This document shows positions 44,945 through 51,675 of a stretch of 64,000 nt of DNA, piece by piece. The notes under the pieces are model-generated. The model was given only the letters and a program-made list of their open reading frames with translations. It did no database searches and was not told the DNA's origin. The DNA lies in contig JANPMV010000001.1 of NCBI GenBank assembly GCA_031427135.1, positions 4 to 64,003 of the forward strand, read 5' to 3'. The position numbers were made by a program, and so were the translations under genes. The number at the start of each line of letters is the position of its first letter. The stretch's first letter is position 1. This DNA is from Cyanobacteria bacterium VAR_87_metabat_62. GTDB lineage: Bacteria > Cyanobacteriota > Cyanobacteriia > Cyanobacteriales > Microcoleaceae.

Positions 44945-44974
44945 TTGACAGTCTTGTAATACGTAATGTAGTAT
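44945..44974 (+). promoter_or_regulatory. strong sigma70-like promoter candidate upstream of the tRNA array
   Basis: TTGACA (44945-44950), 18 nt, TAGTAT (44969-44974), A-tract upstream. Paralogous copy at 55535-55563. Confidence 0.55.
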
Positions 44975-45186
44975 AAATGCATGGCGAAAGAGAAAAGCTT
45001 CAAAGCGTTACTCCAAAAGCAATATGAACTTTGAAAACAGAATAGATAATTAATCGTGTCACATACTTTTGGACATTGGCGGTGTAGACTCCGGCAACAA
45101 TAGCCCGATCGGGTTGTAGTACGCGGAATCAACCGCCAGTAGTCCTAACTTGAGTCATTCAAGGACAGAATATTTTTGATTTTCGC

Positions 45187-45260
45187 GGGGGTATAGCTCA
45201 ACCGGTCAGAGCAGTCGCCTGTCGAGCGAAAGGTTGCGAGTTCAACTCTCGTTACTCCCG
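45187..45260 (+). tRNA. tRNA-Asp(GTC)
   Basis: Acceptor GGGGGTA/TACTCCC, loop CTGTCGA, T-arm GCGAG-TTCAACT-CTCGT, G73. Confidence 0.85.
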
Positions 45261-45264
45261 TCAA

Positions 45265-45340
45265 AGTCCCGTAGGCAAATTGGTTTAAGCCGTCACCCTC
45301 TCTGGCGTGAAAATTACGAGTTCAAACCTCGTCGGGACTC
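45265..45340 (+). tRNA. tRNA-like, irregular anticodon arm (CTC, Glu-like)
   Basis: Acceptor AGTCCCG/CGGGACT and a good T-arm. The anticodon arm has one extra nt (TCACC-CTCTCTG-G[C]GTGA). Confidence 0.5.
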
Positions 45341-45343
45341 CCA

Positions 45344-45417
45344 GGTTAGATGGCCGAGTGGTTTAAGGCGTCGCTCTGCAAAAGCGATTTTCGTGAGTTC
45401 AAATCTCACTCTAACCT
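45344..45417 (+). tRNA. tRNA-Cys(GCA)
   Basis: Acceptor GGTTAGA/TCTAACC, loop CTGCAAA, U73. Confidence 0.8.
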
Positions 45418-45475
45418 TTGTTCCTATTAATTAATAGGAGCAATCTCAAATCTGAAACTTCAAATCAGATTATAT

Positions 45476-45571
45476 AGCAGCGTAGCTTAATGGTAAAGCC
45501 CCAAGTTCATGCCTTGGCAATTGCGAGTACCGCTTCGCGGAAGCAAGCTACAAGTCCCGCCACTGCTACCA
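45476..45571 (+). tRNA. tRNA(CAT) Met-type with an about 21-nt insert in the T-loop; CCA encoded
   Basis: Anticodon arm CCAAG-TTCATGC-CTTGG. T-stem GCGAG/CCCGC encloses 28 nt. The 3' end reads ...CACTGCT-A-CCA. Confidence 0.5.
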
Positions 45572-45574
45572 AAT

Positions 45575-45649
45575 ACAGGGATGATGTAACTGGCAACATC
45601 TCAGTCTCCAAAACTGATTTTCTGAGTTCAAATCTCAGTCCCTGTGCCA
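45575..45649 (+). tRNA. tRNA-Trp(CCA); CCA encoded
   Basis: Acceptor ACAGGGA/TCCCTGT (A1-U72), loop CTCCAAA, G73. Confidence 0.8.
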
Positions 45650-45655
45650 ATTTAT

Positions 45656-45732
45656 AGTGCTGTAGGCAAATGGTTTAAGCCGCTTGGTTTTCACCCAAGT
45701 GATTGCGGGTTCAACTCCCGTCAGCACTTCCA
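45656..45732 (+). tRNA. tRNA-Glu(TTC); CCA encoded
   Basis: Acceptor AGTGCTG/CAGCACT, arm CTTGG-TTTTCAC-CCAAG. Confidence 0.8.
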
Positions 45733-45740
45733 AAACTTCT

Positions 45741-45822
45741 GGGTTGGCCCTCCTACTGGCGTGGGTAGCTGTCTGTAAAACAGTAGCTTAAAGCGTTGCT
45801 GGTTCAATTCCAGCCCGACCCA
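45741..45822 (+). tRNA. tRNA-Tyr(GTA), long variable arm, irregular D-arm
   Basis: Acceptor GGGTTGG/CCGACCC, loop CTGTAAA, A73. Confidence 0.6.
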
Positions 45823-45962
45823 TTTGTAACTGTATTATGACTTACACAAAAAACCCGGTTTCTGAGAAAAATCTTGTATCTCTACGAGAGATATTTAGAT
45901 AGAAACCGGGTTTTTGACCCCCGTGGGTAAATCCTGTGTATTTCATATGCAGTTGCAATTTT

Positions 45963-46037
45963 GAGAATGAGTTGTAACTGGACAACAATTCAGTTTGCGT
46001 GACTGAACATTCGGGGGTTCAAATCCCTCCGTTCTCG
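45963..46037 (+). tRNA. tRNA-like (GCG, Arg-like), atypical loop TTGCGTG
   Basis: Acceptor GAGAATG/CGTTCTC, 6-bp anticodon stem TTCAGT/ACTGAA. Confidence 0.55.
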
Positions 46038-46041
46038 CTAT

Positions 46042-46128
46042 GGAGAAGTGGCCGAGTGGCTTAAGGCGCTTTCCTGCTAAGAAAGAGCGGTTTAACAACC
46101 GTCGTGGGTTCAAATCCCACCTTCTCCG
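46042..46128 (+). tRNA. tRNA-Ser(GCT)
   Basis: Class II. Acceptor GGAGAAG/CTTCTCC, loop CTGCTAA, G73. Confidence 0.85.
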
Positions 46129-46132
46129 TTTT

Positions 46133-49760: not shown

Positions 49761-49861
49761 TTTGCAATTACCGAAATTTTAGTTCGACTCCTATAGATAT
49801 CCAATGAGAGTTAAGTAAACTGGTGTATCAACTTCAGACTGAATCATAGCATGATTAATAA

Positions 49862-49944
49862 GGAAGATGCCGCTAAACGGTTGGCAACTGGTCTTGAAAA
49901 CCAGGGTACAGGTAACTGTAAGGGTTCAATTCCTTCATCTTCCT
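49862..49944 (+). tRNA. tRNA-Ser(TGA), class II, U73
   Basis: Acceptor GGAAGAT/ATCTTCC, arm CTGGT-CTTGAAA-ACCAG, long variable arm. Confidence 0.75.
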
Positions 49945-49948
49945 TTTT

Positions 49949-50020
49949 CCACCAGAAGTCGAAAAGCGAGACACCGTGCTGATAACGCGGGGATAGGAGG
50001 GGCAGTACCTCTCTGGTGGA
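49949..50020 (+). tRNA. tRNA-like with Ile anticodon GAT, non-canonical D- and T-loops
   Basis: Acceptor CCACCAG/CTGGTGG, loop CTGATAA, T-loop GGCAGTA, D-loop without GG. Confidence 0.45.
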
Positions 50021-50071
50021 TCTATTGGTTTATAATAAGTCTAGATTTGCTAGCCATTCAACATAGAAGCC

Positions 50072-50290
50072 ATGAGCATTCAAGTTCTCAAATTAGAATT
50101 GATTCAGTGGATTTTGTTATTGAAGGATGTTCAACTTTTAAACGAAATCCAAAAACTCAAAGAAAAGTCACCTGAAAAGACTGCTGTCCTCAAGCCTCGT
50201 CAATTTGGCTGTGGCAAAGGAATTTTTACTTACGTTGCGGATGATTTTGATGAAACACCTCCAGGTTTTGAAGAATATATGTTGCCATGA
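50072..50290 (+). CDS. VapB/DUF2281-like antitoxin
   Basis: 72 aa. C-terminal GKGIFTYVADDFDETPPGFEEYM is typical of this antitoxin class. ATGA overlap with the PIN remnant. Confidence 0.6.
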   Translation: MSIQVLKLELIQWILLLKDVQLLNEIQKLKEKSPEKTAVLKPRQFGCGKGIFTYVADDFDETPPGFEEYMLP

Positions 50291-50370
50291 AATATCTAAT
50301 TGACACTCACATTCTAATTTGGTTTGTTGAGGGTAACACTCGGCTTGATGAAGATGTACGATCGTTGTAA
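50287..50370 (+). pseudogene. truncated PIN-domain (VapC) toxin remnant, 27 codons
   Basis: MKYLIDTHILIWFVEGNTRL... then a stop. Only the N-terminal PIN motif remains. Confidence 0.65.
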
Positions 50371-50409
50371 AATTGTTGTAATCTCAAATTACCAAAAGTA
50401 AGGTGAAAC

Positions 50410-50982
50410 ATGAGAAAACTAAAATATTACATAGCTTGCACCGTTGACGGGTTTATTGCTCGCGAAGATGGCTCGTTTGATTGTTTTCTGATGTCAGGAG
50501 AGCATTTTGCTGATTTGTTCGAGTTTTTTCCTGAGACTTTTCCGGCTCACGTTCAAAAGGCTTTAGGAATTCATCCAGAAAACAAGCAGTTTGACACTGT
50601 TTTGATGGGACGCAAAACCTATGAAGTAGGGCAAAAAGTTGGCTTGACTAATCCTTATCCCAGTTTGAAACAGTACGTGTTTTCGCGCAGTATGAAAACA
50701 AGTCTCGATGAAAATGTTGAACTTGTCTCAGAGAATGCTGTTGGATTGGTGAGGGAATTGAAGCAGGAAACGGGAAAAGATATCTGGCTGTGCGGCGGCA
50801 GCGATTTAGCGGCAACTGTTTTTTCCGAGATTGATGAAATGATTGTCAAGTTAAATCCGGTAGTTATTGGGGCGGGAATTCCGCTGTTTTCTGGAGCGGT
50901 ATCACCTACTAATTTGGAATTGTGCGATCGCAAAATCTATAGTAACGGTTTCCTGCTGCTGCATTATCGATTGCAGAAATGA
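50410..50982 (+). CDS. dihydrofolate-reductase-family protein (RibD C-terminal domain-like)
   Basis: 190 aa. KYYIACTVDGFIAREDGS...LMGRKTYE...IWLCGGSDL pattern. Confidence 0.75.
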   Translation: MRKLKYYIACTVDGFIAREDGSFDCFLMSGEHFADLFEFFPETFPAHVQKALGIHPENKQFDTVLMGRKTYEVGQKVGLTNPYPSLKQYVFSRSMKTSLDENVELVSENAVGLVRELKQETGKDIWLCGGSDLAATVFSEIDEMIVKLNPVVIGAGIPLFSGAVSPTNLELCDRKIYSNGFLLLHYRLQK

Positions 50983-51029
50983 GGTGTTTGTACGATCGCC
51001 TCAAATAGCATCAATTAAAAGTATGGCAG

Positions 51030-51112
51030 GGAAGCTGCTGCCGCAGGGACGGCGACTTGTCTTGAAAACAAGAGTGCAGTTAACTGTAGGGGTTCGATTC
51101 CTCCAGCTTCCG
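51030..51112 (+). tRNA. tRNA-Ser(TGA), class II, G73
   Basis: Acceptor GGAAGCT/AGCTTCC, arm CTTGT-CTTGAAA-ACAAG. Confidence 0.8.
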
Positions 51113-51124
51113 TTGAGATTTTAC

Positions 51125-51196
51125 GGGTGGTTAGCAAAGCGGTTATGCACCCGGCTTTTAACCGGTATCAGATAGGTTCAACTCCTATACCACCCA
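51125..51196 (+). tRNA. tRNA-Lys(TTT)
   Basis: Acceptor GGGTGGT/ACCACCC, loop CTTTTAA, A73. Confidence 0.85.
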
Positions 51197-51352
51197 CTCA
51201 ATCGATTTTAGATTTTAGATTTTAGATTGAGGGAGATGTGTGAGATTTTAGATTTTAGATTGAAGGGCATATTGTTGCATGAAAGCTGCTGCATTTATCT
51301 GCGTTCATCTGCGTTACCTGCAATTATCTGCGGTTGCAAAATCCCAAAATTT

Positions 51353-51437
51353 GGAAAGTGCGGCTGTGTGGACGGCAACTAATGTGGAATATTAGGGTGC
51401 AGCGAAATTTGTAGAGGTTCGACTCCTCCAATTTCCC
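51353..51437 (+). tRNA. tRNA-Ser(GGA)-like, class II
   Basis: Acceptor GGAAAGT/AATTTCC (one mismatch), arm CTAAT-GTGGAAT-ATTAG, T-loop TTCGACT. Confidence 0.6.
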
Positions 51438-51438
51438 T

Positions 51439-51603
51439 ACGGCTGATGACGGAAACGCGATGGAAATGGTAATTCCGGGCGATCGGGTGAAGATGACAGT
51501 GCAGTTGTTGCAGCCGATCGCGATCGAACAAAATATGCGTTTTGCCATCCGCGAGGGCGATCGTACTGTCGGTGTCGGTGTCGTCTCGAAAATTCTGCGG
51601 TAG
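51439..51603 (+). pseudogene. tuf: EF-Tu (tuf) C-terminal fragment
   Basis: [54 protein letters not shown] matches the last about 55 residues of cyanobacterial EF-Tu. An in-frame stop lies at 51412-51414. An ATG at 51460 would give a 47-aa ORF. Confidence 0.85.
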
Positions 51604-51626
51604 CATTTTGAAGAATTCACAAGTAG

Positions 51627-51675
51627 CAGAAAAGCCATACCTATTCGGGTAATTGGCTTTTCTGTTTGTTTATTG
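51627..51675 (+). terminator. intrinsic terminator after the tuf fragment and end of the array
   Basis: 11-bp stem CAGAAAAGCCA/TGGCTTTTCTG followed by TTTGTTTATT. Confidence 0.7.

Follow-up and report, generated by a model that had tools for sequence, protein, structure and literature searches.

Two described systems come closest to the locus analysed here, the L-type tRNA arrays (L-arrays) exemplified by the Anabaena trn operon and the bacterial Ro60/Y-RNA systems. L-arrays spread horizontally, consist of supernumerary tRNAs, are linked to an HNH homing endonuclease and lie in surroundings of RNA-processing and translation genes (Santamaria-Gomez et al. 2021, PMC8421152). The array of Anabaena 7120 is induced by translation inhibitors and aids survival under translational stress (PMC8421152), and in the Anabaena trn operon the repressor TrcR binds TGTAGTAT, which overlaps the -10 box TAGTAT (PMC10272220). 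Bacterial Y RNAs are encoded beside Ro60 genes, have ends that pair into a Ro-binding stem, occur as several paralogues and mimic tRNA (PMC4201824); a position within 4 kb of a Ro60 orthologue has served as the criterion for calling them (Chen et al. 2014). We analysed 64,000 nucleotides of contig JANPMV010000001.1 from Cyanobacteria bacterium VAR_87_metabat_62 (Microcoleaceae), referred to throughout as the window. Here a tRNA array at 44945-51675 holds a structured RNA of ~210 nt, which we call the mimic RNA, that resembles the factor-binding site of the ribosome, and a gene for a Ro60-like protein lies downstream.

In general build the array agrees with the Anabaena sp. PCC 7120 trn operon and other L-arrays. 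It is long and non-periodic, with presumably supernumerary tRNAs on one strand, a linked HNH homing endonuclease, TGTAGTAT as a candidate operator over the -10 box, neighbour genes of RNA processing and translation, and a history of horizontal spread with frequent insertions and deletions. We classify the interval as a horizontally spread L-array of the kind known from the Anabaena trn operon; that spare tRNAs serve in translational stress is established biology and not new. The window's array differs from described L-arrays in holding an RNA that mimics rRNA, a PARG gene and an EF-Tu stump, and in lying physically near a Ro60/Y-RNA locus. The words 23S, sarcin, PARG and EF-Tu do not occur in the text of the 2021 paper (PMC8421152).

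The mimic RNA has the following parts.

48269-48478, forward strand: the ~210-nt mimic RNA (231 bits with covariance model R1)
48269-48276 with 48471-48478, forward strand: stem P1
48285-48291 with 48458-48464, forward strand: stem P2
48297-48320, forward strand: sarcin-ricin loop (SRL) hairpin
48303-48314, forward strand: SRL dodecamer AGTACGAGAGGA, which with U48302 corresponds to E. coli 23S 2653-2665
48322-48340, forward strand: variable hairpin
48342-48454, forward strand: arm resembling 23S helices 42-44 (H42-H44)
48370-48425, forward strand: mimic of the L11/thiostrepton domain (H43/H44; Rfam LSU, 46 bits, E 1.5e-11, model positions 1093-1148)

The original prediction, made from the sequence of the array, had pointed to an exact SRL dodecamer displayed in a hairpin at 48303-48314. 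This is borne out: the dodecamer occurs a single time in the window, against none in 100 shuffles, and a 6-bp stem closes it (48297-48302 with 48315-48320). The hairpin is one part of a much larger conserved RNA. About 55 nt 3' of the SRL motif, a permissive scan with Rfam gave the LSU match listed above, at a score below the family's gathering score of 50. Aligned to E. coli rrlH, element positions 112-167 (48377-48432) correspond without gaps to 23S 1059-1114, and positions 37-49 to 23S 2653-2665. These two segments alone align, ~60 nt apart and in inverted order, so that homology to 23S is not colinear. The counterpart of the L11/thiostrepton domain as a whole spans 23S 1052-1114. In the ribosome the SRL and H43/H44 together make up the factor-binding site (GTPase centre); the mimic RNA joins their counterparts in inverted order. 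The fold of the whole spacer, 48197-48507, is no better than that of shuffled sequence (z -0.38), and thermodynamics alone would thus have missed the RNA.

A first search pattern, which required SRL and GTPase-centre (GAC) motifs, placed the mimic RNA in at least 119 genome contigs, with nearly all carriers among the matches listed being cyanobacterial, including Nostoc, Calothrix, Tolypothrix, Microcoleus, Moorena, Leptolyngbya and Pseudanabaenaceae. Loci are named in the style of L001, and counts out of 119 refer to the listed loci. We term a locus array-type when it has at least five tRNAs in 8 kb, which divides the listed loci into 21 array-type and 98 non-array. At array loci the place of the RNA is constant, with tRNA-Arg(TCG) on one side and tRNA-Arg(TCT) on the other. 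Two carriers are contigs binned outside the cyanobacteria, in an Acidobacteriota (L015) and an Actinomycetota (L050) metagenome-assembled genome. The latter is likely mis-binned, because a full array is accompanied there by a Ro-like gene, with 81-89% identity to the window. The pattern had no match among the viral contigs scanned; among plasmid records the RNA was matched in just two, from Dolichospermum and Kovacikia, and in no Anabaena or Nostoc plasmid.

Alignment A1 comprises 79 non-redundant copies of ~215 nt, on which RNAalifold drew 47 pairs, 27 of them with compensatory double changes. The pairing that it proposed in the SRL region (UAC with GUA inside the 12-mer) was dropped; the SRL stem was drawn as in rRNA and then tested. 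Under this manual structure the paired share of cells is 95.3%, which falls to 28-49% once partners are shifted by one to three columns, and double changes occur in 29 pairs, against 15.5 +/- 1.6 in shuffles, a number reached by none of 500 shuffles. A check proposed with the original prediction, that the SRL element be conserved with compensatory changes in its stem, thus gave a positive answer. Helices 9-12 of the manual structure are authentic 23S pairs one-to-one, namely 1052-1055/1104-1107, H43 and H44. Positions of tertiary contact that lay outside the search pattern are also kept: of the 79 copies, 77 have U1060/A1088 and 78 have U1082/A1086. There is covariation between position 1072 and the 1092-1099 pair, 73 copies showing U/(U-A) and 3 showing C/(C-G), the latter being the E. 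coli combination; this is a known base triple of the L11/thiostrepton domain.

That A1067, A1070 and the SRL do not vary in alignment A1 is an artefact of the search pattern, and these positions were re-checked in an independent metagenome sample of 37 copies chosen by H44 and a 3' motif, without the SRL. The dodecamer is exact in 30 of these (81%), has one mismatch in 3 and two in 1, and is absent from 3. Three loci also carry a diverged second copy truncated at its 3' end (L006:1768-2005, L029:6061-6294 and L040:7022-7259, the last on the reverse strand). In these the H42-like stem, P2 and P1 lack their 3' strands, those of L006 and L029 have SRL mutations of the G2655A type, and all three look like decaying duplicates. 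Exact retention in the independent copies, set against mutation in the truncated ones, argues that the SRL is under purifying selection in intact copies.

The ends of the mimic RNA are not confined to it. A covariance model built from it finds 1-5 further RNAs per locus by the terminal stems P1 and P2 alone, both of which are backed by covariation and common to several RNA classes. The common scaffold, 5'-YGYGCCCYAAC-(P2)-AGCWUACAUAC-(module)-(P2')-AACUUGCRCG-3', carries differing modules. In one class (~152 nt) the module is a tRNA-like domain in normal order, scored as tRNA by Rfam; in another (~170 nt) it has the order T-arm, hairpin, D-arm, with weak Rfam YrlA matches in L010, and this order is the published YrlA architecture. 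There is also a mini form of 104 nt. Two scaffolded RNAs of the window lie 0.07-0.7 kb from the Ro60-like gene.

56394-56510, forward strand: tRNA-like Y RNA on the shared scaffold (core 56417-56487; tRNA-Lys(CTT) by ARAGORN, Rfam tRNA 46 bits)
57031-57141, forward strand: mini Y-like RNA, in which the scaffold encloses a very short insert, immediately 5' of the Ro60-like gene (covariance model R1 31.5 bits, E 8e-9; fold z -4.4)

Alignment A5 sets window positions 56388-56530 beside 24 scaffolded tRNA-like RNAs from other loci. We assign the tRNA-Lys(CTT) at 56417-56487 as the core of a scaffolded Y-like RNA and not as a tRNA gene that stands by itself; in annotated genomes such modules are probably counted as tRNAs in error. 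The 'anticodon loops' in the alignment differ widely (CUU and UUU for Lys, GUA for Tyr, GAA for Phe, GAU for Ile, UAG for Leu, and CUA), and it looks as if these RNAs display differing tRNA identities. A further class of ~210 nt, absent from the window, was seen at L060:6557-6766 and L070:6476-6685 (both reverse strand), where a 24-nt stretch of the module is identical at 22 of 24 positions to E. coli 23S 1918-1941, in the H69-H71 region, which points to rRNA mimics of a second kind. Beside the Y-like RNAs of L070, an 84-nt stretch (7334-7417, reverse strand) reaches the Rfam gathering score for tmRNA (48.6 against 47 bits) and may be a mimic of the tmRNA tRNA-like domain. Between the two Y-like RNAs of the window, the open reading frame (ORF) 56551-57021 has no Pfam match and no homologue in the 119 listed loci, and is taken as lineage-specific.

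The shared scaffold, together with the known traits of Y RNAs, is why the mimic RNA looks to us like a Y-RNA paralogue whose effector module copies rRNA. As with YrlA, YrlB and D. radiodurans Yrn1, which accompany Ro60/Rsr, we find non-coding RNAs encoded beside a Ro60-fold protein, several paralogous RNAs per locus, paired 5' and 3' ends that form a stem with a conserved bulged motif, a second module that mimics an RNA of translation (tRNA in the Y RNAs), and associated RNA-repair genes. The differences are that the module of the mimic RNA copies the 23S GTPase centre and not tRNA, that the RNA has a length of ~210 nt against 80-130 nt, that the scaffold motif is G(C/U)GCCCYAAC ... AACUUGC against GNCGAAN0-1G and GGUCCGA, that the Ro60-like protein is without a Pfam TROVE match and recognisable by its fold alone, and that the partner genes are X276 and ThiF where Y-RNA systems have rtcBA. 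Rfam 15 has no family for the mimic RNA. A Y RNA that mimics rRNA was not found described in the literature searched, from which several relevant reviews were missing, so that an earlier description is possible; the GTPase-centre-mimicking RNA on its Y-like scaffold, the sister modules and the Ro60-like, X276 and ThiF partners thus appear to be undescribed.

Three genes downstream of the array, all encoded in the window, recur with the mimic RNA in other genomes.

57213-58646, forward strand: Ro60-like protein (~477 aa), modelled as an alpha-helical repeat ring followed by a vWA domain (AlphaFold2 confidence score, pLDDT, 71)
60931-61752, forward strand: X276 (273 aa, fold unassigned), the commonest downstream neighbour of the mimic RNA (82 of 119 listed loci)
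61778-62470, forward strand: short ThiF/E1-like adenylyltransferase, which follows X276 (62 of 119 listed loci)

The AlphaFold2 model of the first of these has helices over residues 3-287 and a vWA-type alpha/beta domain over 295-467. A Foldseek search of the PDB returned Ro60 or Rsr structures as all of its top 11 matches (E down to 2e-10, TM-score up to 0.62), among them Xenopus Ro (E 2e-10), Deinococcus Rsr (TM-score 0.61), human Ro60 and a phage Ro60; the entry 2nvo scores E 2.9e-10 and TM-score 0.61. The product of 57213-58646 is, as modelled, a structural homologue of Ro60. It has no TROVE match in Pfam or NCBIfam; its homologue in L099 matches a phage TROVE protein at E 4e-4.

The Ro60-like gene is present at 62 of the 119 listed loci. 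At non-array loci the mimic RNA usually lies between this gene on its 5' side and X276 on its 3' side, and the Ro60-like gene is within 8 kb of the RNA in 60 of 98, usually 1-2.6 kb upstream. X276 has more than 1500 homologues, all annotated 'hypothetical'; it has no match in Pfam, NCBIfam or PADLOC, a profile search of the PDB gave noise alone (E at least 0.3), and its AlphaFold2 model (pLDDT 54) is too poor for a fold search. In the window, the interval between the Ro60-like gene and X276, which is the slot that holds the mimic RNA in Nostocales, contains a Phd/YefM-type antitoxin with a long C-terminal extension (58717-59145) and a fragment of a PIF1 helicase (59894-60241). These pieces, together with a truncated XisH at 53209-53457 on the reverse strand (XisH/XisI are intact in L045), suggest local insertions and decay.

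Other neighbours of the mimic RNA at non-array loci include KptA/Tpt1 (7 loci), NADAR (8), an RNase T-type exonuclease and a bL12 paralogue (11). With the RNA ligase and PARG of array loci, the KptA, NADAR and RNase T neighbours make up, by annotation, a theme of RNA end-healing, sealing and ADP-ribose processing. The divergent bL12 paralogue lies ~3.7 kb 5' of the mimic RNA in the region L111:253-1086 and at 10 other Nostocales loci, 11 of 119 listed loci in all; its N- and C-terminal domains are intact and its hinge is replaced, a feature of note beside a mimic of the stalk base.

The array that surrounds the mimic RNA is made up as follows.

44945-51675, forward strand: L-type tRNA array, with all tRNAs on one strand
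44945-44974, forward strand: promoter-like site TTGACA-18-TAGTAT, the best such site 5' of the array
45186-47089, forward strand: first block, 16 ARAGORN tRNAs and 3 weak or degenerate tRNA-like units
47151-47990, forward strand: microbial-type PARG (PARG_cat_microb, PF10021, 8.8e-50; TIGR02452, 4e-103)
48041-48196, forward strand: tRNA-Gly(TCC) and tRNA-Arg(TCG) (ARAGORN), directly 5' of the mimic RNA
48508-48825, forward strand: tRNA-Arg(TCT), tRNA-Ala(GGC), a degenerate Ala-like unit and tRNA-Ala(TGC) (ARAGORN and Rfam)
48927-49760, forward strand: HNH homing-endonuclease-like gene (Pfam, weak, 5.6e-4; PADLOC homing endonuclease, 8.5e-14)
49861-49945, forward strand: dispersed distal tRNA-Ser(TGA) (ARAGORN)
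50072-50371, forward strand: toxin-antitoxin remnant, a DUF2281-like antitoxin ORF at 50072-50290 (faint, E 0.0093) and then a truncated PIN-like N-terminus recognised by eye in the sequence
50410-50982, forward strand: RibD_C/DHFR-like gene (Pfam match), with no evident tie to translation
51030-51112, forward strand: dispersed distal tRNA-Ser(TGA) (ARAGORN)
51125-51197, forward strand: dispersed distal tRNA-Lys(TTT) (ARAGORN)
51353-51437, forward strand: dispersed distal tRNA-Ser(GGA) (ARAGORN)
51443-51603, forward strand: 3' stump of an EF-Tu paralogue (ORF 51460-51603, 47 codons; homology to relatives begins at ~51443)
51625-51666, forward strand: intrinsic-terminator-like hairpin followed by a U-rich run, 3' of the tuf piece (dG -23.1 kcal/mol, z -6.2)

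ARAGORN finds 25 tRNA genes within 45186-51437, many less than 100 nt apart; most of those calls are also recovered by Rfam, which adds weak tRNA-like matches at 45476-45568, 45741-45821, 46938-47009 and 48671-48743. Gene order in the first block is syntenic with L004, L095, L063 and L117, and the order Gln-Leu-Leu-Pro-Leu-...-Thr-Gly-Arg-Arg-Ala-Ala is common to the window, these four loci, L022 and L050. Among the arrays of Microcoleus-like relatives that were compared, that of L045 is also syntenic. By its best protein matches the window, too, is Microcoleus-like. Spare tRNAs with altered anticodon loops, one element of the original prediction, are indeed present: 4 of the 25 have non-canonical loops, namely an 8-nt CUCU loop, U37 in Arg-GCG, U37 in Leu-GAG, and A33 with U37 in Ala-GGC. 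Ala-GGC with U37 and Glu-CTC with C33 were each found in the arrays of seven relatives and are inherited; the 8-nt loop, which goes back to Glu-CTC, and the A33 of Ala-GGC look like decay specific to the window.

At 44967-44974, exactly over the -10 box of the promoter, stands TGTAGTAT, the sole copy in the window. Chance alone would give ~0.9 copies of such an 8-mer per window, so that it is solely the position that carries information. The array is probably under TrcR-like repression and switched on when translation is impaired, and the proposed link to translational stress is strengthened in that the promoter has the TrcR operator sequence of the stress-induced Anabaena trn operon, whose type of array aids survival (PMC8421152). 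The claim of one transcription unit has fared less well. Between a degenerate tRNA-like unit and tRNA-Arg(GCG) there is a hairpin at 45849-45915, a near-perfect long palindrome (dG -31 kcal/mol, z -8.7) with runs of A and of U at its flanks, which looks like a bidirectional intrinsic terminator or an inserted repeat; with this hairpin and U-run a single transcript is not assured.

Among the protein-coding cargo, the PARG-type macrodomain had been recognised correctly; its translation carries an intact GGG-X7-QEE motif, readable as GGGFLKGAQAQEE, and the catalytic signature of microbial PARGs is GGG-X6-8-QEE. The toxin-antitoxin remnant and the HNH endonuclease had likewise been anticipated. 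The PIN-like stub has ~27 codons, and 50072-50371 does not hold an intact type II toxin-antitoxin pair. That all cargo other than tRNA relates to translation or toxins is contradicted by the RibD_C/DHFR-like gene, which also occurs in L045, L022 and L063 at 82-88% identity. Homologous arrays carry the same kinds of cargo at syntenic positions, as had been asked of them. Within 8 kb of the mimic RNA, intact PARG orthologues (57-71% identity, 99-100% coverage) are found at 6 of the 21 array loci, between tRNA-Thr and tRNA-Gly where present (seen in L004 and L095); the HNH gene is found at 6, an RNA ligase at 4 (fused to a tRNA-binding domain in L045, where this was checked), and a full-length EF-Tu paralogue at 2.

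The ORF at 51460-51603 had been read as an EF-Tu tail that retains REGDRTVG. It does contain this motif and matches EF-Tu domain 3 at 4.6e-16, over the last 44 positions (62-105) of a profile of 106. The window has this part of domain 3 and not the three domains of EF-Tu. Full three-domain paralogues of 409 aa stand at the corresponding position in L045 (1803-3032, reverse strand; Microcoleus sp. herbarium14, the nearest relative) and L050 (2648-3877, reverse strand), and DNA homology to them starts at ~51443, just 3' of a tRNA-Ser(GGA) that the relatives lack at that position. The full gene in relatives and the abrupt start of homology indicate that the window's tail is a truncated remnant and not a designed peptide decoy; we identify it as the decayed 3' remnant of an EF-Tu paralogue of the island. 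In the three island copies of EF-Tu the second Gly of the canonical REGGRTVG is replaced, giving REG[N/S/D]RTVG, a change that adjoins the Thr aligning with E. coli Thr382. The idea of a back-up or decoy island, put forward in the original prediction, is therefore kept as a translation back-up and repair island and given up as far as the EF-Tu tail is concerned. The L11/thiostrepton-domain mimic adjacent to the SRL, the Y-RNA-like scaffold and the Ro60-like operon 9 kb downstream lay beyond that prediction.

The RNAs imitated here, and the enzymes encoded nearby, have known counterparts in toxin biology. The type VI secretion toxin Tre23 ADP-ribosylates 23S H44 at 1095-1098 and blocks EF-G (PMC8661411). 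The SRL and other 23S sites are targets of ricin and of VapC and MazF toxins, according to work cited there (PMC8661411), and other Rhs ADP-ribosyltransferases are reported to modify EF-Tu and tRNA. Bacterial PARGs reverse 2'-OH ADP-ribosylation of RNA and give protection from an ADP-ribosyltransferase that targets RNA, NADARs undo the ADP-ribosylation of guanosine in RNA, and both can serve as immunity enzymes (PMC11833690).

The explanation that we prefer, and to which we give a slightly better than even chance, is a Ro60/Y-RNA-type system that shows mimics of toxin-targeted translation RNAs and is joined to a back-up tRNA operon. The mimic RNA would be co-transcribed with the array, and tRNA processing of the operon transcript would release it as a 210-nt RNA. 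The bulged two-helix scaffold formed by its 5' and 3' ends would bind the ring of the Ro60-like protein, and its body would display a folded ribosomal factor-binding site, consisting of the SRL and the H42-H44 L11/L10 stalk base. Sister RNAs would display tRNA-like domains with varied anticodons and, in one class found elsewhere, an H69-H71-like segment. The displayed modules may be look-alikes of toxin-attacked RNAs that act as baits, decoys or repair platforms for RNA surveillance and repair centred on Ro60, and such a system could intercept, report or repair damage to tRNA and to the ribosomal factor-binding site. Its partners would be the spare tRNAs, RNA ligase and enzymes that remove ADP-ribose (PARG here, NADAR or KptA elsewhere); meanwhile the array, plus EF-Tu in relatives, would supply replacements. 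A guard-type form of immunity, in which each scaffolded RNA would be a decoy for one target of invaders (tRNA anticodon arms, the SRL, the H43/H44 stalk base or H69-H71) and the Ro60-like ring and vWA domain would sense decoy RNAs that have been cut, depurinated or ADP-ribosylated and would then trigger X276, ThiF and, in array genomes, the back-up translation set, seems to us distinctly unlikely.

Several observations weigh against the preferred explanation. On the protein side, a profile search of PDB sequences with the Ro-like family gave nothing, so the Ro60 assignment had to come from structure, and the model on which it is based is of medium confidence (pLDDT 71); X276 and ThiF, the commonest partners of the mimic RNA, are without an assignable role. 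On the RNA side, the scaffold has the 5' motif G(C/U)GCCCYAAC, and the published Ro-binding motifs GGUCCGA and GNCGAAN0-1G do not occur in it. No copy reaches the Rfam YrlA (RF02553) gathering score of 69 bits and none in the window does; the best YrlA scores in related loci, 34-36 bits, cover the tRNA-like part alone. The H43 loop, including A1067, varies in the second sample (with some A1067G), which is unexpected if exact binding of L11 or thiopeptides is needed. In the window itself stem P2 of the mimic RNA contains a single mismatch (T at alignment column 29); the RNA is 8.7 kb away from the Ro60-like gene, beyond the 4-kb limit used for Y RNAs, and may be cut off from the promoter by the hairpin at 45849-45915, which would split the array into two transcription units. 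Lastly, the cargo is a mosaic, with PARG within 8 kb in just 6 of 21 RNA-bearing array loci and EF-Tu in 2 of 21.

The main rival is a role as a sponge or regulator for ligands of the GTPase centre. The mimic RNA would titrate such ligands in translational stress (free uL11, uL10-bL12, EF-G, EF-Tu, HflX, RelA-type factors or thiopeptide antibiotics being candidates), the Ro60-like protein would be a mere chaperone or stabiliser, and toxin damage would play no part. Such a role fits the retention of the SRL and of the secondary structure of the 1051-1108 domain, with U1060/A1088, U1082/A1086 and the 1072/(1092-1099) covariation; it also fits an array promoter with the operator sequence of a regulon induced by ribosome-targeting antibiotics, and the bL12 paralogues at 11 of the listed loci. 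Munishkin and Wool reportedly found in 1997 that isolated SRL and thiostrepton-domain oligonucleotides bind EF-G. Synthetic 'ribosome-in-pieces' oligonucleotides of this sort likewise excise the same two rRNA elements from the ribosome, and they differ in being separate laboratory-made molecules, where the mimic RNA is one natural, conserved RNA. Titration leaves unexplained, however, why sister RNAs carry tRNA-like and H69-H71-like modules on one shared scaffold and why neighbours that heal RNA ends or remove ADP-ribose recur, and two positions crucial for thiopeptide binding, A1067 and A1070, vary in the independently drawn sample. We consider it unlikely, though it deserves the most serious attention among the rivals. 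Less likely than titration is a cis-acting leader that mimics rRNA, binds uL11 or uL10 and controls the downstream X276-ThiF genes, the array copy being a displaced relic, because the RNA stays intact when detached from X276-ThiF: array-type loci have tRNAs, RNA ligase or other genes 3' of it, and it keeps its covariation there. X276 does lie 3' of the RNA on the same strand at 82 of 119 listed loci, starting ~100 nt past the RNA end where measured, and a cited review treats rRNA mimicry by leaders as an established mechanism. The leaders of ribosomal-protein operons, such as the L10 leader, resemble the mimic RNA in being short RNAs that reproduce a protein-binding site of rRNA outside the ribosome. 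The mimic RNA, in contrast, is not 5' of ribosomal protein genes, combines two distant rRNA sites, has the closed ends of a stand-alone RNA and sits inside a tRNA operon. Moreover, the closed 5'/3' scaffold is common to stand-alone tRNA-like RNAs, no ribosomal protein gene lies downstream, and a leader would have no need of the SRL, which binds neither uL10 nor uL11. We regard this reading as quite improbable.

The competing view raised with the original prediction, that a mobile array prone to recombination captured the rRNA-like and tuf-like pieces from rrn and tuf loci as inert fragments, holds for the tuf stump and fails for the rRNA-like element. In its favour, the tuf piece is a truncated gene, XisH is truncated, the toxin-antitoxin pair is degraded, several tRNAs look damaged, and some genomes have degenerate second copies of the mimic RNA. 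For the mimic RNA the covariation refutes it: a scaffold of its own brings together, in inverted order, two 23S segments that are not neighbours in rRNA, the element recurs in at least 119 genomes with 29 compensatory pairs, and the SRL is exact in 81% of independently ascertained copies. As an account of the whole it is very improbable. Least probable of all, and hardly credible in our judgement, is that the 47-residue EF-Tu tail peptide and the SRL hairpin act as stand-alone decoys for Doc-type kinases and ribotoxins on one transcript with PARG. The tail does keep the Thr aligned with the RTVG motif and a strong terminator follows it, but the whole 409-aa gene is found at this position in relatives, the window copy begins abruptly after tRNA-Ser, the fragment covers under half of a beta-barrel domain (profile positions 62-105 of 106), and no clear ribosome-binding site was seen 5' of its ATG.

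If the preferred explanation of a Ro60-centred display of toxin-targeted RNAs is right, it would give a handle on the job of bacterial Ro60, which is still unclear. Y RNAs are known as tRNA mimics, and a mimic of the GTPase centre with an H69-H71-like sister would extend this principle to rRNA. Should the guard-type reading prove true, it would amount to a bacterial RNA-decoy surveillance, a natural 'ribosome in pieces'. The mimic RNA is in addition a natural, compact and phylogenetically validated construct of the SRL and the L11/L10 stalk base, usable for binding tests with factors, thiopeptides, ribotoxins and RNA ADP-ribosyltransferases. Three literatures, on stress-induced tRNA arrays, on Ro60/Y-RNA repair operons and on RNA ADP-ribosylation with its reversal by PARG and NADAR, would thereby be joined in one model of how cyanobacteria protect translation.

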